Below, one piece after another: positions 3,583-40,608 of a DNA stretch of 40,608 nucleotides. The position numbers were made by a program, and so were the translations under genes. Where the stretch lies: the IMG/VR virus record IMGVR_UViG_3300049016_000016, positions 1 to 40,608 of that record; one strand, 5' to 3'. The notes beneath the pieces were generated by a model. That model made no database searches, was not told the DNA's origin, and saw nothing but the letters and a program-made list of their open reading frames with translations. This DNA comes from a virus (lineage: Duplodnaviria; Caudoviricetes). Numbering within the stretch: the stretch's first letter is position 1; each line of letters starts with the position of its first letter.

Positions 3583-3831
3583 ATGAGCGAGTGGCAACCG
3601 ATTGAGACTGCGCCCAAGGATGGTACTGACGTAATCGTCATGTACATGCACATCGAGACGCAGGTGGTTCACAACGCCTTCTGGATGGACGAGAAGGACT
3701 GCTGGGCCGGGGATAACCCTGGCGGTTGGTGGTCCTATGTTCATAGCGAAGTGAGCCGTGAACTGCTTGACGACTGGCGTACACCCACCCACTGGATGCC
3801 GCTTCCCCCTCCACCCAGGAGGCCCGCATGA
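3583..3831 (+). CDS. DUF551-like protein
   Basis: WQPIETAPKDG...PTHWMPLPPPP signature; AAGGAG RBS. Confidence 0.85.
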   Translation: MSEWQPIETAPKDGTDVIVMYMHIETQVVHNAFWMDEKDCWAGDNPGGWWSYVHSEVSRELLDDWRTPTHWMPLPPPPRRPA

Positions 3832-4507: not shown

Positions 4508-5668
4508 CTACTTCAGCATGTCGCTGTTGATGGTCAATCGGCTCACCTCTCCGTAGCCTGAGTGGTACGTGATCACCTTGGCGTCACGCCCTGACAGCCA
4601 TCCGCCGCGAGCTGCGTAGGCATCGGGAGCCGCAAGCGTCCGGTGTTGCTCCACAACCATCAGGTTGTTCTCCTTCACGTCGATGCTGTGAAGATGCCCC
4701 ATGTGGGCGTAGGCGTACTTGGTGCGCCCGAAGATTTCCCGGAACTGCGCGGCGAACACCTCGGAGACATTCGCCACCTTGCGCTTGTGTCCATGGTGGA
4801 AGAACAGCGCCACCTTGCCGAACTCAAACGCGTTGTAGGGCGATGGGCTGCGATCAACGGTAATGCGTGGCTCGTTCTCGTACAGGACGGACAGCCACTC
4901 CCGGAGCCAGATTTGCGACACCGGATCATGGTTCGCGTCAGCCATGACGATGTGCAGCCGCTGGTGTTTTGCCAGCAGCATGTCAATGATCTGCCGCAGC
5001 AGGCGGATGACGGTGCGAACGACCTTGTAGAACCTGCTGTCCACGTCAAGAACGTGCTTCGACGCTGGTGTAAGCGGCTCCAGACCATCCGAATGCAGGA
5101 GGTCGGAAAGCTGCGCAAACACCGCCGTTTCGCTGTCAGGCGCTTGGGCAATGGCGCGGGAGAACCAAGCGAGCAACGTCTTCTCCGCGATCTTCAGATC
5201 CCAATCCGCCCCGGTTTCCTCCCGGTGCGAAAGCATCGACAGGTGATAGTCGGTGATGACGTAGCAGTTACAGAGGTTGTGGGCGGTCGCCTTGGAGGGC
5301 GCTGGGATCGGCTCCAGCCTAGGGATTTCGTCCTTGAGCGCGTCGATAGCCGCCCGGAACATCTCCTCGCGGCGGGCCTCATCGGCACTGGACTTCACCC
5401 ACTGCCCGCGTACCTTGCCTTCCTCGTCGTAGTACGTGGAAACGCCTTTGACCTTGAAACCGTCCGGAACGGTATGGGTCATGTCGTGGCCGGGCGAGTA
5501 GCCCTGTAGCGCGGCCTTCTTCTTCACTGCGGCGACAGCATCATTCACCGCATTCTTCGTCACCCCCAGAGCCCTAGCCGCTGCACGCTGGCTACCGTGC
5601 TGCTTGATGGCCTCTAGGATTTCAAGCTGGCGCGGGGTGGCGAAGGATCGAAGCTGGACGTCGATCAC
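4508..5668 (-). CDS. HTH-fused calcineurin-like metallophosphoesterase
   Basis: N-terminal HTH (GSQRAAARALGV); metal motifs TDYH, SDLLH, ANHD, HHGH, HMGHLH. Confidence 0.75.
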   Translation of the reverse strand: MIDVQLRSFATPRQLEILEAIKQHGSQRAAARALGVTKNAVNDAVAAVKKKAALQGYSPGHDMTHTVPDGFKVKGVSTYYDEEGKVRGQWVKSSADEARREEMFRAAIDALKDEIPRLEPIPAPSKATAHNLCNCYVITDYHLSMLSHREETGADWDLKIAEKTLLAWFSRAIAQAPDSETAVFAQLSDLLHSDGLEPLTPASKHVLDVDSRFYKVVRTVIRLLRQIIDMLLAKHQRLHIVMADANHDPVSQIWLREWLSVLYENEPRITVDRSPSPYNAFEFGKVALFFHHGHKRKVANVSEVFAAQFREIFGRTKYAYAHMGHLHSIDVKENNLMVVEQHRTLAAPDAYAARGGWLSGRDAKVITYHSGYGEVSRLTINSDMLK

Positions 5669-26075: not shown

Positions 26076-26398
26076 GCCGCCCCCAGGGCAAAGACGCTGT
26101 TTGCCGGGGGCGCCTTGATCGGCAGCGCCTCCCCACCCATCAGCCTCGCTAGGCGCACCCCCACGGGAACATTGCACTCCGGGTTAACGAAGAACCGCGC
26201 TCGGCCTGCGTCGTCCTTGCACTTGCGAAGGGTGTTGCTGCGGGCGACCATGTTTTGCAGCAGCACTTGGATGAACTGCCGATTGATAGCCGGGAACCTC
26301 TCGGCGAAGTGCTCCACGATGTCATCAGGAGTCCATCGGTCTCCGTCTTCAAACAGCAGCAGCCAGATTTCCTGTTGAATGCCGGCGTTTGGTCTCAT
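26072..26398 (-). CDS. Hypothetical protein (winged-helix-like)
   Basis: ATGA-coupled to ninG; ends PANSVFALG. Confidence 0.6.
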   Translation of the reverse strand: MRPNAGIQQEIWLLLFEDGDRWTPDDIVEHFAERFPAINRQFIQVLLQNMVARSNTLRKCKDDAGRARFFVNPECNVPVGVRLARLMGGEALPIKAPPANSVFALGAA

Positions 26399-26976
26399 TC
26401 TTCGCTCCTCAGTGCCTTCAGTTCCCTAACCGCTGCCTTGTACTTTTCGCGAATGGCGATCAATTCATCCCGTTGCCATTTGTGCACTCGGTTGTCCGCG
26501 TATAGGGCGTTCACCACATCCCAGCCGACACGCTCAGCGGCTCCGGCCTTCTTGGCTTCTTCCGTCGCGCCGCCCGGCCTATTGCAATTTTTCCGTTGTC
26601 CGAAACAGTTGGTTTCCACGAAGCGGAGGTGAGTCGCGGCACCACGTGAGCGAAGGTGCCCCGCGTCCATTGATCCGCCCGGCTTGTTCGGCTCGTAGTG
26701 CTTGCCGCAGTCGAAGCACGGCTTGTCGGCGTCCCGCAGGCGGATGAAGAGGTTGAACCACTTCTGCGCCTCTTCGATCAACTCGCCAATCGTCTTGGCC
26801 GCTTCCTTCCGCGCCTTCAGCTCATCCCGGTCCTTCGCCTTCTTCGCGTCTGACCTGGCCTTCACCAGACGGCTAGCGCAACGCGGGGAACAGACGTTCT
26901 GGAGCGGGCGAGCGGGCACGAACTCGCGGGAGCAGTGGGAGCACTCCTTGGTCTTGGCGGTGAAGGCGGGGAACAT
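26395..26976 (-). CDS. ninG: NinG/Rap-like recombination endonuclease
   Basis: FNLFIRLRD, CFDCG, DAGHLRSRGA, LRFVETNC motifs. Confidence 0.88.
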   Translation of the reverse strand: MFPAFTAKTKECSHCSREFVPARPLQNVCSPRCASRLVKARSDAKKAKDRDELKARKEAAKTIGELIEEAQKWFNLFIRLRDADKPCFDCGKHYEPNKPGGSMDAGHLRSRGAATHLRFVETNCFGQRKNCNRPGGATEEAKKAGAAERVGWDVVNALYADNRVHKWQRDELIAIREKYKAAVRELKALRSEE

Positions 26977-27182
26977 CAGTAGTCCCCGTTGTCAAAATGA
27001 ACCACCTTCGGCCGGTCCGGCGTGTACTCGCGCAGCCTCTGAATCGTCACCGCCTCATTCGGCAAACCTCCGTCGTCAAGCTCTTTCCGAATCATCTCCA
27101 CGGCCTGAAGCGGCGACTCGGCAATCACGACGACACACGAACCGATCCAATGTCCGTGCCCCTCATGGACGTAGACCCTCAT
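26976..27182 (-). CDS. Hypothetical protein, 68 aa
   Basis: MRVYVHEGHGHW...DNGDY; coupled at both ends. Confidence 0.6.
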   Translation of the reverse strand: MRVYVHEGHGHWIGSCVVVIAESPLQAVEMIRKELDDGGLPNEAVTIQRLREYTPDRPKVVHFDNGDY

Positions 27183-27583
27183 CACAGACTCGCCTCCCAT
27201 GCGTTGATGAAGTCGATCAGCTCGGCGCACTCGCCCTTGGTCAGGTCCGAGGTGCGGCGGAACACCACATCCACCCCATGACCGTCCAGCGCCGGCAGTA
27301 TCTCGATGGACTCGCCACGCGCCCGAAGCCATGCCGCAGTCAGCAGGCGCTTCCACGTCTCCGGATCACGCTTGCTGCCGGCCCATTCGTGCTTGTCGGC
27401 AATCTCGGTCAGACGGGCATGCAGCAGCGCGTTCTGAGACAGGTTTCGCTTCTGCGGCTTGACGGCCAGGCTCCACCGCCCTCCTCCTTGCAGGACGGTC
27501 GCCAGGAACGGAAAGAGTTGCGCCTTGATCGCGGCCCAGGCCTGGGCGCGGTTGTGCAGTTCGATGGACAGGGAATCGCTCAC
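27182..27583 (-). CDS. ninB: NinB-like recombination protein
   Basis: KRNLSQNALLHA, WKRLL, RTSDLTKGECAELIDFI motifs. Confidence 0.85.
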   Translation of the reverse strand: MSDSLSIELHNRAQAWAAIKAQLFPFLATVLQGGGRWSLAVKPQKRNLSQNALLHARLTEIADKHEWAGSKRDPETWKRLLTAAWLRARGESIEILPALDGHGVDVVFRRTSDLTKGECAELIDFINAWEASL

Positions 27584-27641
27584 AGCACCCCCAAGAAAGC
27601 CCAGAGCGGGAAAAAAGCCAGGACTAGCCATGCCATTGCAC

Positions 27642-27890
27642 TCATGCGGACACCCTCGCAGCCATGCGCTTAGCCGCGTCTTGCAGACGTGCGTTGAACC
27701 AGCGCCGCACAACGTAGCTGCGGGCCACGCTCACCAGCGTGTACAGGAAGCCGATGAAGAAGTTTTCCCCGATGCTGATGTTGAAACCGATCAGTGGCAG
27801 GATGACGAGATTGGCGAAGAAGTTGATCCAGAAGCCAATCAGCACGTTCATGCAGGCTTCGATCAGCGAGCCCAAGCGGGTTTGGTTCAC
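27642..27890 (-). CDS. Small membrane protein
   Basis: QTRLGSLIEACMNVLIG...RSYVVRRWFN; two hydrophobic segments; common phage family. Confidence 0.75.
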   Translation of the reverse strand: MNQTRLGSLIEACMNVLIGFWINFFANLVILPLIGFNISIGENFFIGFLYTLVSVARSYVVRRWFNARLQDAAKRMAARVSA

Positions 27891-28366
27891 AGCTTCACTC
27901 CCGTGTCTTCAATGGTGAAATGACGCGGCGTCTTGTCCGCGTGCTTGTCCAGCATCGCCCCGGCTGCGGCGTTCATGCCGGCATAAAACGAGGTGGAGCG
28001 CGGCGGCCGGTCGTCGGCGCACATGCCCTGCATCTGGGCATCCCGCAGGACCGCCAGCGTGCACATGGCCTTGGTGATGTGGGACAGGCCGGAATCCGGG
28101 TCAATGTCCTCCCCCTCCCACCAGGCGATCATGTGGCGCATCAGCGCATCGAAGTACACCGACGCCCTCACTCCGGCGCAGCGGTAGTTGTGGCGCCCGT
28201 ACTTAGCCGCGCCCTCCAGCATCCCGACGCCCATCTCCACGATCACGCCCATGGGGACGGTCGATAGAGGAGCCTTGCGGGTGCCGATCATGTCCTTGGG
28301 GTTCGTGGCCTTGGTGTTGGGTAAGGCGTGGAACGTCAGGGCTTCATGGTTGTCTTCACGGTGCAT
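27887..28366 (-). CDS. dATP/dGTP diphosphohydrolase-domain protein (DUF5664-like)
   Basis: NPKD..G, GAAKYGRHNYR, ALMRH..AWWEGEDIDPDSGLSH motifs. Confidence 0.8.
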   Translation of the reverse strand: MHREDNHEALTFHALPNTKATNPKDMIGTRKAPLSTVPMGVIVEMGVGMLEGAAKYGRHNYRCAGVRASVYFDALMRHMIAWWEGEDIDPDSGLSHITKAMCTLAVLRDAQMQGMCADDRPPRSTSFYAGMNAAAGAMLDKHADKTPRHFTIEDTGVKL

Positions 28367-33703: not shown

Positions 33704-33985
33704 TCAGCCCTTGCAGCTCGGATCAATAGACTGGCTGAAGTCGCTTTCGTCTTCAGTGGACGCGGGGTTGCGCAGAACCGCCCAATTCACATCGGGCCGC
33801 AGCTCCTCGCACCGGACGCCGGTCAGCGCCTCAATATCGGGGCATACTGCAACCGGCACTCCTTCAAGCATCCAGCGAGAAACGGCCGCCTTTTTGCGAC
33901 CCAAGGCCTGAGCCAGAGTGGTCTGGTTTCCATGGGCCTTGCACGCTCGCTTGAGCGCTTCCTGAGGGGTAGCTGAAGTGTTCAT
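33704..33985 (-). CDS. cro: Cro-like repressor (YdaS family)
   Basis: GNQTTLAQALG...VSRW and CPDIEALTGVRCEELRPDVNW; divergent from the repressor. Confidence 0.85.
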   Translation of the reverse strand: MNTSATPQEALKRACKAHGNQTTLAQALGRKKAAVSRWMLEGVPVAVCPDIEALTGVRCEELRPDVNWAVLRNPASTEDESDFSQSIDPSCKG

Positions 33986-33986
33986 G

Positions 33987-34026
33987 GTCTCGCATTACTA
34001 TACATCCAAGTCTCTGAATGCGAGAC
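33987..34026. promoter_or_regulatory. Operator-like inverted repeat GTCTCGCATT-N20-AATGCGAGAC between cro and the repressor
   Basis: Perfect 10-bp inverted repeat; 34012-34026 recurs as its reverse complement at 35163-35177. Confidence 0.65.
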
Positions 34027-34067
34027 TACATACTAGTAATGAGCCACGTCCGCCTTATGCTTTCCGG

Positions 34068-34439
34068 ATGGGGTTCAAGGACCGTTTGGCCGAGGCACGT
34101 AAGGCGAAAGGCTTCAGTCAGGAAGTCTTAGGCGCCCACCTCGGCATGTCCAAGCAGGGGATCTCGCATTGGGAGGCGGGGCGCTACACCCCTGACATTG
34201 AGCAGCTAGTCAAGCTTTGCGAGGTTTTGGAGTGCTCTGCAGACTGGCTGGTCCTAGGGAAGTCTCCCGAGGGTCTATCGCCAGACGCAATCGAACAGGG
34301 CCGGTTCTTCTCCCGTCTGAGCGATGGTGGCAAGAAAAAATGGCGCACCATGCGACTGCTGTTCGTGGATGGCGCATCGGATCTGACTGTGGAAGCCAAG
34401 ATGCCAGCCACCCGCAAGCGCGAGTTTCACAACAAGTGA
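34068..34439 (+). CDS. CI-like Xre repressor (probably leaderless; no S24 peptidase domain)
   Basis: RLAEARKAKGFSQEVLG...ISHWEAG...SADWLVLG; TATGCT ends 6 nt before the ATG and there is no SD. Confidence 0.8.
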   Translation: MGFKDRLAEARKAKGFSQEVLGAHLGMSKQGISHWEAGRYTPDIEQLVKLCEVLECSADWLVLGKSPEGLSPDAIEQGRFFSRLSDGGKKKWRTMRLLFVDGASDLTVEAKMPATRKREFHNK

Positions 34440-34636
34440 TAGCTAACCTGGCTTATGCACTGCTGGCGCTGGCATGGGCCTTATTGATGTCCACCCTGCT
34501 CATGGGTTCAGACATCCAAACCCCGGAATTTTGGGGGTTCGCCCTGTTCGCCTTCAGCTTTGCGGCCGCCTTCGTTGGAGCCACATGGATCGCCCTGAGA
34601 TGGGGTCATCAGGACGACGAGCCGAGCAGCTGGTAA
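34436..34636 (+). CDS. Two-TM membrane protein co-transcribed with the repressor
   Basis: GTGA overlap with the repressor stop; two hydrophobic helices. Confidence 0.6.
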   Translation: MIANLAYALLALAWALLMSTLLMGSDIQTPEFWGFALFAFSFAAAFVGATWIALRWGHQDDEPSSW

Positions 34637-34654
34637 CACTGTTCGTACAAGCTG

Positions 34655-34927
34655 CTACTGACGGCCGGCCCTGGAGAAAGCGTCCCGTAAGGTTTCCGGG
34701 ACCATGTGCGTGCCGAACAAGACGTAATCGGCCGACACCCCATAGATGAGCACCAAGTCTGCGAGCTGGTAGGCATTCAGCTTAGTCCGGCCCGTTTCCC
34801 AAGAGGAAATGGCCTGCTTGGTAACCCTGAGTTCGTGAGCAACGTCCCCCAGGGACAGTCTTGCCCCCAGCCGGCACTCGCGTAACCGGCTGCCGATCTC
34901 CACCTTCCTTGTCTCCATCCTCGGCAT
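34655..34927 (-). CDS. Second Xre-family HTH regulator
   Basis: IGSRLRECR...VTKQAISSWETG...VSADYVLFG. Confidence 0.8.
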   Translation of the reverse strand: MPRMETRKVEIGSRLRECRLGARLSLGDVAHELRVTKQAISSWETGRTKLNAYQLADLVLIYGVSADYVLFGTHMVPETLRDAFSRAGRQ

Positions 34928-35222
34928 AAACAGCAGCCGCTACTTCCTGCCTGGTTGGGCCTTCATTCTCGCCAGCAAACGTCAACCGTGCGTTAACCCG
35001 TCAACTAGCACCTTGAACGGTAGAGCTTGCGCCTGTTGACGGATCGACATCCACCCTCTGTTGACGCCCCAAATTGGGTACGTAAACGGAAGTAACCACA
35101 ACGTTTGCGCCGCAGCTCGACAGTGTGAGCTACTGCACAAGCTCAGCAGTTCTTATGCGCCTGTCTCGCATTCAGAGGCAGAGCATATGGCGAATCTGTC
35201 TGAAAAAAAAGTATCGCTTTCC

Positions 35223-35251
35223 TTGACCTGAATGTCTCTGTTGGCGATACT
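35223..35251 (+). promoter_or_regulatory. pL-like early promoter TTGACC-N17-GATACT
   Basis: Near-consensus sigma70 promoter resembling lambda pL (TTGACA-N17-GATACT); operator copy at 35163-35177. Confidence 0.7.
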
Positions 35252-35286
35252 TCTCTCCATCGCAACCGAATGCATGGAGAAACGAG

Positions 35287-35610
35287 ATGGCGAAGCACAC
35301 CCCAGCGCCGTGGGATTGGTACTGGCGGCAAGAGGATGGCGAGGCAGTCTGCGGCGTATTCCATGAGTCCCGCCCAGGCATGGCGTACTCGGTGTGTCGC
35401 GCGCCTCGCTATCAAACGCGCCAGCAGTGGGAAGCGGACGCCCGCCTGATCTCGGCGGCGCCTGACCTTTATGACGCAGCCGACAACGCCCTCAATGCGC
35501 TGATTGCCTGCTGCGTTCCTGCTGGCGGTGTTGATGACCGCAAAGCGATCTTGGATGCGCAGGCAATGCTTCGCGCCGCCATCGCCAAGGCCACCGGGAG
35601 CGCGCAATGA
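35287..35610 (+). CDS. Hypothetical early protein (HTPxPW...ARLIxAAPDL family)
   Basis: GGAG RBS; common phage motif. Confidence 0.75.
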   Translation: MAKHTPAPWDWYWRQEDGEAVCGVFHESRPGMAYSVCRAPRYQTRQQWEADARLISAAPDLYDAADNALNALIACCVPAGGVDDRKAILDAQAMLRAAIAKATGSAQ

Positions 35611-35795
35611 ACCGCCACATGCACCGCGTCGCCCTGCGCTATCCGAGGACCGCAGCAGAGGCCTTCCGCGGCCCCGACTACGCAGATCCGATTGACCGGC
35701 CGCCGGGCCGCTCCCTTCTGGCTTCGCCGGCCTTCTGGATTGGTGGGGCGATCAGCGTGCTGTTCTGGCTCCTTGCTTGGAGGATTGCAGCATGA
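35607..35795 (+). CDS. Small membrane protein
   Basis: YPRTAAEAF motif, C-terminal TM, ATGA coupling. Confidence 0.65.
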   Translation: MNRHMHRVALRYPRTAAEAFRGPDYADPIDRPPGRSLLASPAFWIGGAISVLFWLLAWRIAA

Positions 35796-36157
35796 ACGCC
35801 GAAGAAATCTTCGCGCAGATTGATGCCGCCAAGGCGAAGCGTGCCGAGCAAATGCCGACAGAGCGGGACGCCATCCGCGCGATGTTCGACGCATGGCAGC
35901 GCCTCCAGGAGTTGGGATGGCGTGACGGCCAATACATGCCATCAAACGGCGAACGCCACGCTGGCATCCAGTGCGGATCTACCGGCATCCACGCCTACAC
36001 GGCCGAACTGCGCGGCCCCTTTGACCGGATGTTCACTATCTATGACGGCGACCACTGGCCAACGCGTATCCCGCCCGTGCTGTTCCGGCCATGGGAGGAC
36101 ACCGACGTTCAGGCGGAGCTTCGCCCTGCCTACCCGATGCCGGAGGAGTCCACATGA
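35792..36157 (+). CDS. Hypothetical protein
   Basis: GGAGG RBS; AWQRLQELGW motif; coupled. Confidence 0.7.
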   Translation: MNAEEIFAQIDAAKAKRAEQMPTERDAIRAMFDAWQRLQELGWRDGQYMPSNGERHAGIQCGSTGIHAYTAELRGPFDRMFTIYDGDHWPTRIPPVLFRPWEDTDVQAELRPAYPMPEEST

Positions 36158-36378
36158 ACTGCTGCACCCAGGCCAAGTTCGATTGCGCGCAAGGCCGCCT
36201 TTGCCCTCTCCGCGAGGCCCACAAGCGTGGCTTCGTTGCCCCGCGCCCTCCCCAGCCCGAGGAATCCAGCGAGCCCGATCACTGGAGCAAGCCGGCGCTG
36301 TGGATCTTGGGTGCGGCCGCACTCGCTTGTCTCGCTGCTGCTCTGTGTGGCATCGCCCTGACCATCCCGTTTAACTGA
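36154..36378 (+). CDS. Small Cys-rich membrane protein
   Basis: MNCC...CAQGRLCPLR plus C-terminal TM. Confidence 0.65.
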   Translation: MNCCTQAKFDCAQGRLCPLREAHKRGFVAPRPPQPEESSEPDHWSKPALWILGAAALACLAAALCGIALTIPFN

Positions 36379-36391
36379 CAAGGACACCGAC

Positions 36392-36601
36392 GTGAACGAC
36401 GAGAACACCTACACCTTCTTCAGCACTCCGCACTTCGTCATCAGCGTGAACGAGCACAAGGACGCGCCGGCGTGCCTGCTGGTGCGCGTGAGCAGCCAGG
36501 CCGTGCTTTCTCTCGGGTTCGATGTGTCGCCCGAGGATGCGCTGAAGCTGGCCGAAGCGCTCACGAAGCACGCCAAGGCTTTGCAGGGAGCGAAGGAATG
36601 A
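36392..36601 (+). CDS. Hypothetical protein
   Basis: AAGGA RBS, GTG start. Confidence 0.6.
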   Translation: MNDENTYTFFSTPHFVISVNEHKDAPACLLVRVSSQAVLSLGFDVSPEDALKLAEALTKHAKALQGAKE

Positions 36602-36870
36602 ACACGCACATGCCAACCGTCGTTACGGTGCCGCGATCTACCTCCCATCCGACCGTCGTTGAGCCCTTTGGGTTTCCGATGGAATGCGAGTACGACTATG
36701 ACGGGGGCGAGCCAACCATCTGGTGGCCGACCGAACTTGCCCACCCAGGCGCCCCGCCGAACGTCCAACTGCTTGTCTGCAAGGTGGGCGGGCAAAACAT
36801 CTACGACATGCTTACCCTGGATCAGGTTGAGCGCATCGAGGAATCCATCCTCGACCAACTGGAGCGATAA
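36598..36870 (+). CDS. Hypothetical protein
   Basis: ATGA-coupled acidic 90-aa ORF. Confidence 0.6.
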   Translation: MNTHMPTVVTVPRSTSHPTVVEPFGFPMECEYDYDGGEPTIWWPTELAHPGAPPNVQLLVCKVGGQNIYDMLTLDQVERIEESILDQLER

Positions 36871-36871
36871 C

Positions 36872-37912
36872 GTGAGCAGCAACCTTCAGATCATCCGAGA
36901 AGACATCTACTCGACGCGCGAGCGGTTCGACAAGATGTCAGGGGGCGCCCTGAACTTTGAGCGTGAGGCTGGGTTTGCGGTCCAGATCGTCACAGCGAAC
37001 GACTACGCAATGCGCGTGGCGATGGACAACCGCCAGTCGGTTATCAACGCCGTCACGAACGTTGCGGCCATCGGGATCAGCCTGAACCCTGCTAAGCGTC
37101 AGGCGTATCTCGTCCCGCGCGATGGGCGAATCTGCCTGGACATCAGCTACATGGGCCTACTGGATCTCGCCATCCAATCCGGCTCCATCATGTGGGGACA
37201 GTCGGAGCTGGTCTACGAGAACGACCGCTTTGAACTGCAAGGCTTCGACAAGCCGCCCCTGCACAACCGCAATCCATTCTCCAAGGATCGCGGGGCGATC
37301 GTCGGTGTTTATGTCGTGGTCAAGACCCGCGACGGCGACTATCTGACAGCCTGCATGAGCATTGACGAGGTGTACGACATCCGCAACCGCTCCAGCGCTT
37401 GGAAGGCGTGGGAAAGCAAGCAGAAAAAGTGCCCCTGGGTGACGGACGAGGGCGAGATGATCAAGAAGACGGTCATCAAGCGCGCCTACAAGCTGTGGCC
37501 CAAGACTGACCGCCTGGACAACGCGGTTCACTTCCTCAACACCGAGGGCGGCGAAGGACTGGCCGACATCGCTACCGAGCAGCCAGCCTCGTTCCGCAGC
37601 TCTGCGACCATGGGTGCGATGGCCGCACTTGACGTTGACCAACAGAACTACCTGCGGGACTTGGCGGCGGAGGTCACCGAGCTTTTCAACAGCCCAGAGG
37701 CTGGAGTCTCGCTCTCGTTCGACCGGCTGGAAAGCGAAAATCTGGACTCGGATCAGAAGGTTGGGCTGTGGTCATGCCTCGCATCAAACGTCCGCTCCGG
37801 CCTCAAGAAGGAGGGCGAAGCGAGAAGGACGAAGCCTGCGGCCAACCAGGAACTGAAGCAAGCCCATACCACTGTCACGCAGGCCGCGCAGCACCAGCAG
37901 AGGGCGGCTTGA
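36872..37912 (+). CDS. recT: RecT/Red-beta-family single-strand annealing recombinase
   Basis: GISLNPAKRQAYLVP, ISYMGL, PWVTDEGEMIKKTVIKRAYKLWP motifs. Confidence 0.9.
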   Translation: MSSNLQIIREDIYSTRERFDKMSGGALNFEREAGFAVQIVTANDYAMRVAMDNRQSVINAVTNVAAIGISLNPAKRQAYLVPRDGRICLDISYMGLLDLAIQSGSIMWGQSELVYENDRFELQGFDKPPLHNRNPFSKDRGAIVGVYVVVKTRDGDYLTACMSIDEVYDIRNRSSAWKAWESKQKKCPWVTDEGEMIKKTVIKRAYKLWPKTDRLDNAVHFLNTEGGEGLADIATEQPASFRSSATMGAMAALDVDQQNYLRDLAAEVTELFNSPEAGVSLSFDRLESENLDSDQKVGLWSCLASNVRSGLKKEGEARRTKPAANQELKQAHTTVTQAAQHQQRAA

Positions 37913-38598
37913 TGCCCGGCTACGAAATCTCTTTCTCCATCACGGCGGTCTGCCCGTGCTGCGGCAAGGACTTACCGTCCAGTTCGTACCTGACCGTGAG
38001 CAAGCCTTCCGGTTACCCCTTGGACCGCGACAACCCTTACGAGCGGAAGGACCGTCGCGTGTTCATCACGCCGTGCGCGGATTGCTTCGAGCCGAAGCGG
38101 AAGCCTGACGCCACCGCTGGCGTGGAGGGCACCCCTGCGTCTCTGAGTGACGAGCGCATCCTGCACCTGTGGGACACGCACGTCGCCTACGAGACGAACC
38201 CCAACCGGCCGAGGCAGCCGCCGCTGAGCGACAAGGACAAGCTGGCGTTCGCTCGCGCGGTGCTCTCCGCTCATGACGCGCCGGAGGCAATGGGGGCGCT
38301 GCAAGAGGCCGCGAACCTCGCCCGCGTGATCGGCGGCATGTTGGCTGAGGCAAACGTGCCCACGGACGTAAAAGGCAAGGTGCATGAGCTACGCCGCATG
38401 CTCTTTGATGCCGCCCTTGGCGTGAAAGCGTATGACGAAGCTCGGCTGGCCGAGTGGCTAAAGGCGGCGGGCTACATGCCGGAGCCGGAAGGCTTCCTGT
38501 GGGTGTTCAGCACGTCCGACTTGGTGGACATCGTCAACAACATCGCACCCGTTTCTGGCGTGAAAACACCTAATGGAGGCCAAGATGCCGAAGGTTGA
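37912..38598 (+). CDS. Modular fusion protein (three modules separated by the xGV motif)
   Basis: TGATG coupling to recT; motifs at 38117, 38417 (variant) and 38555. Confidence 0.7.
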   Translation: MPGYEISFSITAVCPCCGKDLPSSSYLTVSKPSGYPLDRDNPYERKDRRVFITPCADCFEPKRKPDATAGVEGTPASLSDERILHLWDTHVAYETNPNRPRQPPLSDKDKLAFARAVLSAHDAPEAMGALQEAANLARVIGGMLAEANVPTDVKGKVHELRRMLFDAALGVKAYDEARLAEWLKAAGYMPEPEGFLWVFSTSDLVDIVNNIAPVSGVKTPNGGQDAEG

Positions 38599-38944
38599 AA
38601 TGAAGCCGCTGACGCCGGAAGCGCAGGCGCTGGCCCTGCGCGTTCACGAACTGCTCAAGGACGCCAAGCCGGGCCAGAAGGTGGCGCTTCCGGCCGATCT
38701 GGCGCAGGCCATCAACGATTCCGTCCGCGAGGCGTCTGCGCCCGCCATCCTCGCGCGCCGCCGATTGGAATGGCTGCACAGCCGCGATGCCTATGTGGAC
38801 GGCTACGAGTGGGGAATCTTCCGCGTCAAGTGGGAGAACGGCCGAGTGGTGGAGGTATTGCAGACCAACAGCGACTTCTCCGATCTGGACGCCGCGATGG
38901 GCACCGCTGGCGTGCGAGTACCTGGGGAGGGGAAACAGAAATGA
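38585..38944 (+). CDS. Hypothetical cassette protein
   Basis: GGAGG RBS; ends TAGVRVPGEGKQK. Confidence 0.7.
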   Translation: MPKVEMKPLTPEAQALALRVHELLKDAKPGQKVALPADLAQAINDSVREASAPAILARRRLEWLHSRDAYVDGYEWGIFRVKWENGRVVEVLQTNSDFSDLDAAMGTAGVRVPGEGKQK

Positions 38945-39096
38945 GCGATCCCGAAGACCCGAACCGCTACGGCGAACCCACCAAAGCGCCGCACTGGTGC
39001 GAACTGTGCCGGGGGCACACGGGGCCGAATTCGCCCTGCCACAGTGGCGACGACTACCAAGCCGACGATGACGGCCCGACGACGGAGGTCGAATGA
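38941..39096 (+). CDS. Small Cys/His protein, 51 aa
   Basis: GGAGG RBS, ATGA overlap; HWCELC...PCH. Confidence 0.55.
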   Translation: MSDPEDPNRYGEPTKAPHWCELCRGHTGPNSPCHSGDDYQADDDGPTTEVE

Positions 39097-39272
39097 CGAA
39101 CCTTGAAAAGCTGGACGAGGTGATCCGCCTAACGGTCATGGCGGCACGCAGCGCCGAACCAACCACCATCGACTATGCCGAACTGGTCGAGCGCCGGAAC
39201 CGGCTCGTCCACGAACTGCGAGCGGCCCTTGCTGGCGTGGCACCGGCTCATGGAGGAAATGATGGACGTTGA
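39093..39272 (+). CDS. Hypothetical cassette protein, 59 aa
   Basis: Manual translation MTNLEKLDEV...LAGVAPAHGGNDGR; GGAGG RBS. Confidence 0.65.
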   Translation: MTNLEKLDEVIRLTVMAARSAEPTTIDYAELVERRNRLVHELRAALAGVAPAHGGNDGR

Positions 39273-39483
39273 ACTTTGCCCAGAATGCGGCGCGCCCGAC
39301 AACTACGTTGACCAGCTCGCCAAAGTGCGCGCTGTCGCTTCCGTGGCCCTTCAAACGCTGCGCCATCTGGAAGCTGCTCGCGGGATCTCGCCGGAGTCTC
39401 GCGAGCGCATCAGCGACACCATCGCCGCGTTGCGTGCCGAATTGCTCGGCACTGCTGGCGTGCAGGAGGATCAACGTGGCTGA
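39259..39483 (+). CDS. Hypothetical cassette protein (CPECG motif)
   Basis: GGAGG RBS; ends TAGVQEDQRG. Confidence 0.65.
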   Translation: MMDVELCPECGAPDNYVDQLAKVRAVASVALQTLRHLEAARGISPESRERISDTIAALRAELLGTAGVQEDQRG

Positions 39484-40003
39484 GTGGCAACCCATCAAAA
39501 CAGCACCGAAGGACGGCACCTGGATCGCCGCCATCGGCCACCTGAGCCACGGCACGCCCGACACGTTGAAATGGAAAGACGGTGGCTGGTGGAACGGTTA
39601 TGACAACCACGACCATGAGCCGACGCACTGGTATCCGCTGCCGGCCGCCGCTGGCGTGGAGGGGACTTTGGAGCCCGAGCCCGGCTGGTTCCTGCCTTAC
39701 GAGGCGGTCAAGCACCTTACCAGTTTGCCGAAGCTGCTGGAGCACGCAAGGCGCGCCCGATGGACCAATGCCGTGGTCAGGAAAGACGGCGTGGAAACGA
39801 CCTACGAGGCCGACTGGATCAAGCACATGCGCTGGGTTTCTGGAGGTGCGGCATACGAAGGCCGCGCATTCGTTGCCGGCGCATGGCAAGCGTGGCACCC
39901 GATCAGCGCCGAGGTTTACGAGAACCGGAAGAAGTGGCCGCGCGACGGCTATGAGGTTCGTGTCGCCGCTGGCGTGGATGTACCTGGGGAGGGGAAGCGA
40001 TGA
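39476..40003 (+). CDS. DUF551-like domain fused to further module(s)
   Basis: AGGAGG RBS, GTG start; WQPIKTAPKDG...PTHWYPLP, then an AGVEGT junction. Confidence 0.75.
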   Translation: MAEWQPIKTAPKDGTWIAAIGHLSHGTPDTLKWKDGGWWNGYDNHDHEPTHWYPLPAAAGVEGTLEPEPGWFLPYEAVKHLTSLPKLLEHARRARWTNAVVRKDGVETTYEADWIKHMRWVSGGAAYEGRAFVAGAWQAWHPISAEVYENRKKWPRDGYEVRVAAGVDVPGEGKR

Positions 40004-40608
40004 ACGAACTGACGCCCGAAGTGAACGAGGCCCTGCGACAGCTCCATGAGCACAGTAAGGCGGTGATGGAGGCGCTGGCCGACCTCGCGCGCCAGGGCTG
40101 CTACGAGTTCAAGCAACACCCCGGCGGCGAATACATCGACCGGGACGAGGCCATGCGAAACGTGATCCGGTTGCGTGACGCCCACACCCGCATGAGTCAC
40201 CACGCACGCGCGGCGCTGGTCGCGGCCGGGCGCATTGCTGGCGTGGCAGCGGTTGCGCCGTCCGACGAAGCCGAGTTCTGCATCGAGGGTGCGGGCGGGA
40301 TGTTCCTTGCGTCCTCGCAAGGTCCCCGAGCGGAAGCGTGGCGCGAGATTCAGCACTACGCCGCCCAGTACCACGACGAGGGGCCGCTGACCATCTACGA
40401 GGTCACGCGCCGCCCGGTAACCGCTGCTGGCGTGGCACCGGCTGGTGAACCTTCTTGGTGGGCTGCATCCCTCAATCGCCGAGCGACAGTGGAGCAGTGG
40501 ATGTTCGATGCGGCGCGGGGCAAGCGCCCAATGCCGACGCCGGATGAATTGCGCGCCTGGGCCATCAAGCTGGGAACCCCGGCTGATGGTGAGCCCGCCC
40601 CTGGCGTG
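40000..40608 (+). CDS. Modular fusion protein wrapping the origin (stop at 161-163)
   Basis: Manual translation is open from ATG 40000 through IAGV (40238), AAGV (40427) and APGV (40601/120) to TGA at 163. Confidence 0.7.
   Translation, partial: MNELTPEVNEALRQLHEHSKAVMEALADLARQGCYEFKQHPGGEYIDRDEAMRNVIRLRDAHTRMSHHARAALVAAGRIAGVAAVAPSDEAEFCIEGAGGMFLASSQGPRAEAWREIQHYAAQYHDEGPLTIYEVTRRPVTAAGVAPAGEPSWWAASLNRRATVEQWMFDAARGKRPMPTPDELRAWAIKLGTPADGEPAPGV

Follow-up and report, generated by a model that had tools for sequence, protein, structure and literature searches.

Why should an array of small, unrelated phage genes carry the same short motif at junction after junction, always on one strand and always in one reading frame? 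The question is raised by a temperate tailed phage (Duplodnaviria; Caudoviricetes) represented by the IMG/VR record IMGVR_UViG_3300049016_000016, of which positions 1 to 40,608 were analysed; this whole stretch of 40,608 nucleotides is referred to as the window. Between its recT gene and its xis-int genes, units holding small genes or single domains are punctuated by the motif CTGGCGTG. Natural variants gain, lose and swap units at the linker to which this motif belongs, either at the core or at its far end. By analogy, the best reading is that the array works like the linker or boundary-sequence exchange of lambdoid phages, carried down to the scale of single domains.

The window ends overlap by 127 bp and the genome is a circle of 40,481 bp, so that the copies at 40601 and 120 are one and the same. 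CTGGCGTG has 15 exact matches in the window, all on the + strand and 14 of them distinct after this merger; the variant copy TTGGCGTG at 38417 brings the number of sites to 15. All exact copies lie inside the 4.06-kb array, with none outside it, and profile matches identify recT and xis-int as the two borders. In shuffled versions of the window, a mean of 2.98 matches was found on both strands over the whole length, and 0 of 100 shuffles reached 15; scaled to one strand of 4.06 kb, the mean is about 0.15. A preliminary description made from the letters alone had given the same coordinates and strand, the same chance expectation, the absence of exact copies elsewhere, the same borders and the same unit lengths (138–352 bp, with one of 908 bp), all of which hold on recount. 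Its GC content of about 65% was too high, as the whole genome measures 61.4%.

The motif forms the invariant 5' core of a longer coding linker. It had been described as an 8-base element, and while the exact copies stand, the conserved site reaches 5 bases further upstream, giving CRYYSCTGGCGTG, with C at -5 in 15/15 copies, R at -4 in 14/15, and Y at -3 and -2 in 15/15. In relatives only TGGCRTG is fixed, and every copy seen ends in GTG or ATG. Five copies join domains in frame. The other ten end a gene and supply the ribosome site and start of the next one, the core sitting 21–70 bp before that start, with a purine-rich ribosome site and an overlapping stop/start. A unit thus consists of core, tail and body, and tail and body are separable from each other.

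All 15 copies are in frame as NCT/CTT-GGC-GTG and are read as x-Gly-Val, as previously claimed. Two of them are translated by mini open reading frames (mini-ORFs) only, at 274–327 and 1381–1431 (16–17 codons), where the preceding gene stops before the core. The units starting at the five intragenic cores all have lengths that are multiples of 3, and the reading frame is therefore preserved. The T-GGC-GTG form occurs in 15/15 junction copies versus 3/56 Gly-Val pairs in 30 genes outside the array, a contrast whose nominal value of 1e-21 is overstated because the copies are related. The earlier view that the constraint acts on the DNA rather than on the peptide agrees with these fixed synonymous positions and with the distant module homologues, most of which have no Gly-Val at the edge.

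The same regularity could mean that the motif is kept for a role in RNA or protein, with exchange as a by-product of repetition. It might serve translational coupling or RTG re-initiation, bind a protein on the early transcript, or form an x-Gly-Val protease site. The single frame, the two mini-ORFs that seemingly exist only as carriers, the constant GTG or ATG ending and the position of 10/15 copies shortly before a start all suit such a role. A peptide signal is hard to reconcile with the fixed synonymous positions, and Gly-Val/Met lies near few module edges in homologues (31/173 on the right and 16/138 on the left; background 12.6%). No stable fold, no Rfam family and, by eye, no ribosome site upstream of the core were found; DNA folding z-scores are near 0 around 14/15 cores, with one at -3.5, and the tRNA is the only match to an Rfam family. 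This explanation is considered unlikely. No exact inverted core is present in any unit, and the folding around the cores shows nothing like attC, in line with the absence of attC hairpins noted before.

Exchange at the linker is visible in environmental assemblies. Parts of the window are present in 18 soil or rhizosphere DNA runs, the RNA runs X19 and X20 having shares of 0.05–0.06, and contigs of other soil runs drop units or change neighbours at the core or at the linker end. A contig of run X2 (818 bp, 1 mismatch) joins 310 to 1727 via 29 other letters, and run X5 joins 127 to 1721 via 27 other letters. In both, the replaced tail is as long as the terminal tail of the window and the last linker is another allele; four and five units are absent. 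Runs X2 and X8, which come from different studies, have one common alternative upstream sequence, joined at 300, the first base of TGGCGTG. X2 carries a different tail after 503, the match of an X8 contig ends at 502, and X5 has a different tail before 140. Contigs of X3 and X8 match the linker only (294–328, 295–329 and 299–333). Among the 16 joints and loose ends listed on positions 1–1950, nine fall in a linker, two at a linker start codon and five elsewhere, the latter being short or 90%-like matches; by our estimate, linkers make up about 12% of this stretch. On 36800–40608, X5 joins other DNA at 40421, X4 has the linker 39964–39994 alone, and contig matches begin at 39652 and 39456. Most of the loose ends on this stretch (24 of 53 listed) come from other organisms, with short matches at the 88% setting. 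The assemblies were presumably built on 31-mers, with contig overlaps of 30 bases visible, and a shared word of 7–13 bp should therefore not mislead them. A joint of 40608 to 39968 in X3, first read as a circle or a reordering, was rejected as an artefact because linker 495 resembles linker 39969 and the same 712-bp contig is collinear with 1–656.

Homologous proteins of the fused genes A, F and G break at the cores as well. Gene A (37912–38598, + strand; 228 amino acids) is a fusion of a Cys-rich module A1 (residues 1–66), a module A2 (from residue 72) and a further part after 38417, as delimited by homologues and by locus L149. Core 1 (38117–38124) forms its first in-frame domain junction, and core 2, the TTGGCGTG variant at 38417–38424, lies in frame within the same gene. 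Its 63 shorter homologues match A1 or A2 separately, homologues of A2 have Gly-Val on both sides in 3/5 cases, and L149 matches A1 at 85.6% DNA identity up to 38124. Gene F (39476–40003, + strand; 175 amino acids) consists of a DUF551-like module F1 (PF04448, E 0.0034, below the cut-off) fused to F2 at core 7 (39651–39658), a junction marked by homologues, contigs and frame. Among its 8 homologues, P0001 is 100% identical to F2 from Gly-Val on, following a different 7-residue leader, and P0002 keeps F1, has its second module changed and ends in the same tail. Gene G (40000–40608, continuing to 163 across the circle, + strand; 214 amino acids, full protein P0072) comprises modules G1, G2 and G3, with in-frame junctions at core 9 (40238–40245) and core 10 (40427–40434). 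It has 261 phmmer hits, the best 150 of which divide at the cores (residues about 82 and 145) into three groups. P0073 and P0222 are 96% identical to each other and differ in the tail after the core; both join another module at the position of core 10, close to the X5 joint at 40421. P0074 has six Gly-Val linkers within 319 residues. Module G3 obtained no function from ESM Atlas (top score 0.82). Judged from these sequences, the linker is the property of a lineage and the modules spread well past it; the modules do not need the linker, because few homologue edges carry Gly-Val/Met. Contigs and proteins together bear out the proposal that the motif is a point of gain, loss and exchange of units in nature, with junctions that switch and homologies that break there.

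How far does the linker itself reach? Frame-locked TGGCRTG runs occur in the same region of three loci, L001, L002 and L149. Among the loci found by recT (10 viral and 2 genome), clear core arrays are present only in L001 and L002, with one copy in L008; searches with modules A1/A2 gave 8 loci, L149 alone having an array. L001 (8990–14015) and L149 (4163–7871) have in common the end of one 200-bp module and 13 stretches of 27–56 bp, in the same order and at 86–100% identity; these anchors were hand-picked from blastn and exact-match lists. The intervals between the anchors are unrelated, 12/12 scorable ones lying within the shuffle range, and their length differences are a multiple of 3 in 9/12. 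In L149, a duplicated 14-mer of another linker family stands on either side of one extra module. The linkers of both loci fall into about five families arranged in blocks, the Gly-Val type being one of them. Downstream of recT in L004, L005 and L130, a third linker set is repeated within and between the loci (with peptides such as AAPEAPAQ, WQARAALAQKGG and MNTILTDD). Four cultured Pseudomonas temperate phages, Haboob, phPA-G, YMC/01/01/P52 and HB2107-3I (L168–L171), have collinear, near-identical matches of 19–48 bp that separate unrelated modules before xis-int, without this core. These four and three further RecT relatives show the same pattern with other linkers.

Wider scans for DNA patterns turned up no sister arrays. 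A scan for the core plus GTACCT gave 118 viral loci, all due to chance or to one unrelated conserved gene, and three cores at 163–193 bp spacing gave 17 loci, all tandem repeats or chance. The longer linker pattern was found in 0 viral loci and in 1 unrelated metagenome contig. The triple-core pattern is present in 0/251 genomes of the G001 family and module A1 in 0/401, and alignment A2 yielded no confirmed metagenome locus. The array is unmatched in 50,697 GenBank phage records (blastn, and tblastn of gene G), and the integrase search gave 1 distant viral locus. In the literature searched, with subscription papers and supplements outside its scope, no description turned up of the motif or of any temperate phage with a repeated core locked in frame.

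The linker family provides exchange points for small genes and domains, and we consider it probable that units move by annealing, RecT-type or generally homologous, over the 30–45 bp linker, in addition to rarer crossovers in the 7–13 bp core. Whole-linker homology of 30–45 bp would permit RecT-type annealing between co-infecting phages or prophages, which would also explain the conserved linker order. RecT-type annealing would fit because the linker is at or above the minimal pairing segment of 23–27 bp that the accessible part of PMC3945230 gives for Red-beta. Joints confined to the core would alter both the number of units and their tails; they are probably microhomology events of lower frequency. 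An exchange from core to core would produce a fused protein or a still-coupled operon, and its products should survive because every core is in the same reading frame. A copy whose core is damaged would no longer take part in exchange, and the core could thereby be kept invariant without a dedicated enzyme.

Several points weigh against annealing as the explanation. The evidence from the runs consists of low-depth assembled contigs, not reads. The joints at 300, 39652 and 39456 on the left and at 127 and 502 on the right share only the 7-bp TGGCGTG with the window; such core-only joints, as well as the exact shared runs of at most 11 bp in 91/105 pairs of window copies, are far under the Red-beta minimum. 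G405, the complete L149 phage, contains the linker type and gave no RecT match. Furthermore, homology alone does not explain how unrelated modules so often first gained flanking linkers. In a separate observation, the stretch 2740–3504 of L149 has, in the recT position, a gene for an NGO0469-family protein with an acidic tail like that of single-stranded DNA-binding proteins and a Gp157/Gam-like gene, which are candidates for an annealing function.

Joints that share just the 7-mer are what a site-specific enzyme would leave. TGGCGTG would then be the 7-bp asymmetric spacer of a tyrosine recombinase site, and a phage or host enzyme would excise and insert units as circles, much like an integron that lacks hairpins. 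The 6-bp flanks of the 7-mer are partly inverted complements in the window, at 47/90 positions versus a maximum of 40 in 5000 codon-phase-matched draws, and the dyad appears only at offset 0 (partner shuffle p 0.012), although it emerged post hoc, from 21 width/offset settings tried on related copies. The duplicated 14-bp motif around the extra L149 module is likewise what a single-crossover insertion would leave. The dyad is absent, however, in 18 copies from five other phages (36/108, with no peak at offset 0), and no ORF of the window is common to all three other core-bearing phages, two of whose records are incomplete. The integrases differ, with 36% identity to that of L002 and no match in G405, and no core lies in the probable attP at the tRNA. 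Further joints occur at -5/-6 and at the distal linker end, and five linker families fill the same role in L001 and L149. We regard a site-specific recombinase as doubtful. Similar doubt applies to the wider proposal that Burkholderiales temperate phages run an active frame-preserving domain assembly, in which a recombinase cutting at TGGCGTG, with sister enzymes or specificities at other linkers, would capture foreign fragments and build combinatorial early proteins. Of the undescribed shuffling system put forward in the preliminary description, exchange at the motif stands; a dedicated enzyme is not supported, given a non-integron integrase, direct repeats and no recombinase candidate common to the motif-bearing phages.

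A further explanation treats the motif as a Chi-like site, where a host nuclease would leave 3' ends that anneal to another copy. E. coli Chi is GCTGGTGG, and the motif resembles it. The orientation of all copies on a single strand is in keeping with such a role, which would also account for joints at a very short core. A 400-kb stretch of a Hydrogenophaga genome with a related recT served as one proxy, which may not be the host; in it, TGGCGTG is under-represented (z -4.45, rank 15536 of 15554), CTGGCGTG is ordinary (z 1.5), and the strand counts are 121 vs 81. The Chi-like word proposed for Ralstonia, as given in the accessible text of PMC2013936, differs from the motif. Other linker families are without any such core, and a Chi-like function is very unlikely. 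The low frequency of TGGCGTG in this proxy stretch (positions 1–400000 of the G001 contig C1; L172–L191), where it is among the most under-represented 7-mers, may only reflect codon usage.

Is the array, then, a known kind of cassette system? Integrons work through IntI with attI and attC sites, shufflons through Rci and sfx sites, and integrons are reportedly found in phages. Like them, the array is a tandem series of small unrelated promoterless units in one orientation beside a tyrosine recombinase gene. Unlike integrons, it has no attC hairpin, it fuses domains in frame, and its breakpoints lie at more than one position. The integrase was rejected as an IntI, since it scores 54.6 bits against TIGR02249 with a cut-off of 265 and only the catalytic C-terminus matches. 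A shufflon was likewise dismissed, as it needs inverted sites, whereas all copies here are on the + strand and form direct repeats. The earlier comparison to an integron- or shufflon-like crossover system was not upheld, because breakpoints occur at the distal linker end too and comparable junctions of the same region in other phages carry unrelated linkers.

The PeSL cassettes of T4-type phages, as far as the accessible part of PMC2839356 describes them, are intergenic promoter-plus-terminator units with proven mini-circles. They too place a repeated element between small non-essential genes, where units are deleted, inserted and replaced. In contrast, the element is coding here and the units depend on one upstream promoter; a sigma70 promoter and stem-loop terminator with each repeat were not encountered in 34900–40608. 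A scan of that span found a single promoter-like site at 35223, upstream of the operon, and no terminator on the + strand. By the criteria tested, the array is not an integron, a shufflon or a PeSL system.

The linker or boundary-sequence model of lambdoid modular evolution comes closer (Botstein and Campbell; Susskind and Botstein 1978; Clark et al. 2001; as cited in PMC2839356 and PMC3029335). As outlined in the accessible sections of these papers, unrelated modules of temperate phages are exchanged via short conserved flanks that keep placement and expression, and the collinear linkers of L001/L149 and of the Pseudomonas phages match this. Here, too, a short conserved border sequence is common to phages with unrelated flanking modules, in an early accessory region of a temperate phage between the recombination genes and xis-int. 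Relative to the model so outlined, the array differs in that a single family, its 7-bp core fixed, is repeated 15 times within 4 kb of coding sequence and frame-locked, single domains are joined, and the number of units changes as well as their identity.

By position, the array region corresponds in this phage to the lambda exo-xis or P22 ea accessory region. The mosaic exo-xis/ea region of lambda, P22 and Stx phages encodes Ea22/DUF551 mosaic proteins (PMC7093339, PMC10834534), and the accessible sections of these papers show the same location between a recombination gene and xis-int, small early genes, mosaic proteins, a portable DUF551-like domain and common short C-terminal tails. No Ea22 match was obtained, and the host is probably a Burkholderiales bacterium, as judged from the recT relatives. 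In their accessible parts, both papers treat the mosaic make-up of the proteins and an R/KGE tail of unknown significance, and not a DNA core or natural joints.

The remaining units, all on the + strand, follow gene A. Core 3 and its tail (38555–38587) contain GGAGG and the start of gene B (38585–38944; 119 amino acids), which has no family match. Core 4 and its tail (38907–38944) end in an ATGA stop/start overlap with the next unit, 38941–39272, in which gene C (51 amino acids, without a core) and gene D (59 amino acids) are combined; a homologue of gene D is arranged otherwise in P0222. Core 5 with its tail (39232–39272) leads into gene E (39259–39483; 74 amino acids), and core 6 has a short tail (39455–39483), the match of an X5 contig beginning at 39456. 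Between genes F and G, core 8 and its tail (39969–40003) again form an ATGA overlap, and this is the linker that stands alone with other neighbours in run X4. Core 11 (40601–40608) and the tail that ends gene G occupy 120–163, where the X5 joint of 127 to 1721 falls and the tails of P0073 and P0222 differ.

Beyond gene G, the Cys-rich gene H (153–287; 44 amino acids) has a different preceding tail in run X5. The 17-codon mini-ORF at 274–327 has core 12 (299–306) in the frame that reads Gly-Val, and it overlaps the start that follows; the alternative upstream DNA of X2 and X8 joins here at 300. Gene I (320–529; 69 amino acids) ends in core 13 (495–502) and its tail. The 908-bp unit (genes at 526–1384) holds gene J (526–1275), which resembles phosphoadenosine phosphosulfate reductases (PHROG 424, E 2.3e-44), and the small gene K (1268–1384). 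The 16-codon mini-ORF at 1381–1431 carries core 14 (1403–1410), assigned by frame, and gene L (1424–1759; 111 amino acids) contains core 15 (1686–1693) and the terminal linker into xis, for which X2 and X5 have alternative alleles of the same length.

The surrounding genome has the gene set of a temperate phage, with profile matches to cI/cro/cII-like genes, recT, xis and int and with a tRNA-Val copy. The left border of the array is recT (36872–37912, + strand), which encodes a single-strand annealing protein (PHROG 148, E 1.4e-63; PF03837; TIGR00616 above cut-off). The right border (1756–2876, + strand) consists of a xis-like gene (1756–2040; PHROG 66) and a phage tyrosine integrase gene (1914–2876; PHROG 1). 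A complete tRNA-Val(CAC) at 2864–2938 on the - strand overlaps the end of int and has no linker core; this copy beside int is probably the attP region. Relatives of recT at 81% and 67% occur in Hydrogenophaga and Burkholderiaceae assemblies, and because of these and the 18 soil or rhizosphere runs, a soil Burkholderiales bacterium is the likely host.

Some neighbouring genes were noted as well. Beyond attP, outside the array and without a core, a small gene at 3583–3831 has a faint DUF551 match (Pfam E 0.043; PHROG 7704 E 0.0009). No exonuclease family match was obtained among the scanned ORFs directly upstream of recT (35287–36870); a DNA-repair exonuclease gene lies at 4508–5668 and NinB/NinG-like genes at 26395–27712. 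A gene of the replication/nin region (27887–28366) matches PHROG 801 and is dATP/dGTP pyrophosphohydrolase-like, and two convergent repressor-like helix-turn-helix genes follow the cro-like gene at 33978–34927.

The linker model of phage mosaicism is an old one, but boundary sequences cannot be found at most mosaic joints, according to the accessible text of PMC3029335, and mosaicism in accessory proteins of unknown function is described as largely uncharted in that of PMC10684548. The phage studied here has plain, repeated linkers that are seen at work in natural populations, even between single domains and at joints with no more than 7 bp in common. The cultured Pseudomonas phages with collinear linkers offer a bench model for linker exchange, and if a dedicated enzyme exists, it would provide a compact tool for in-frame gene assembly. 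Because the linkers are this plain and are seen in use, an old question is now testable: whether an annealing protein, microhomology or a site-specific enzyme builds the small mosaic early proteins of phage "dark matter".

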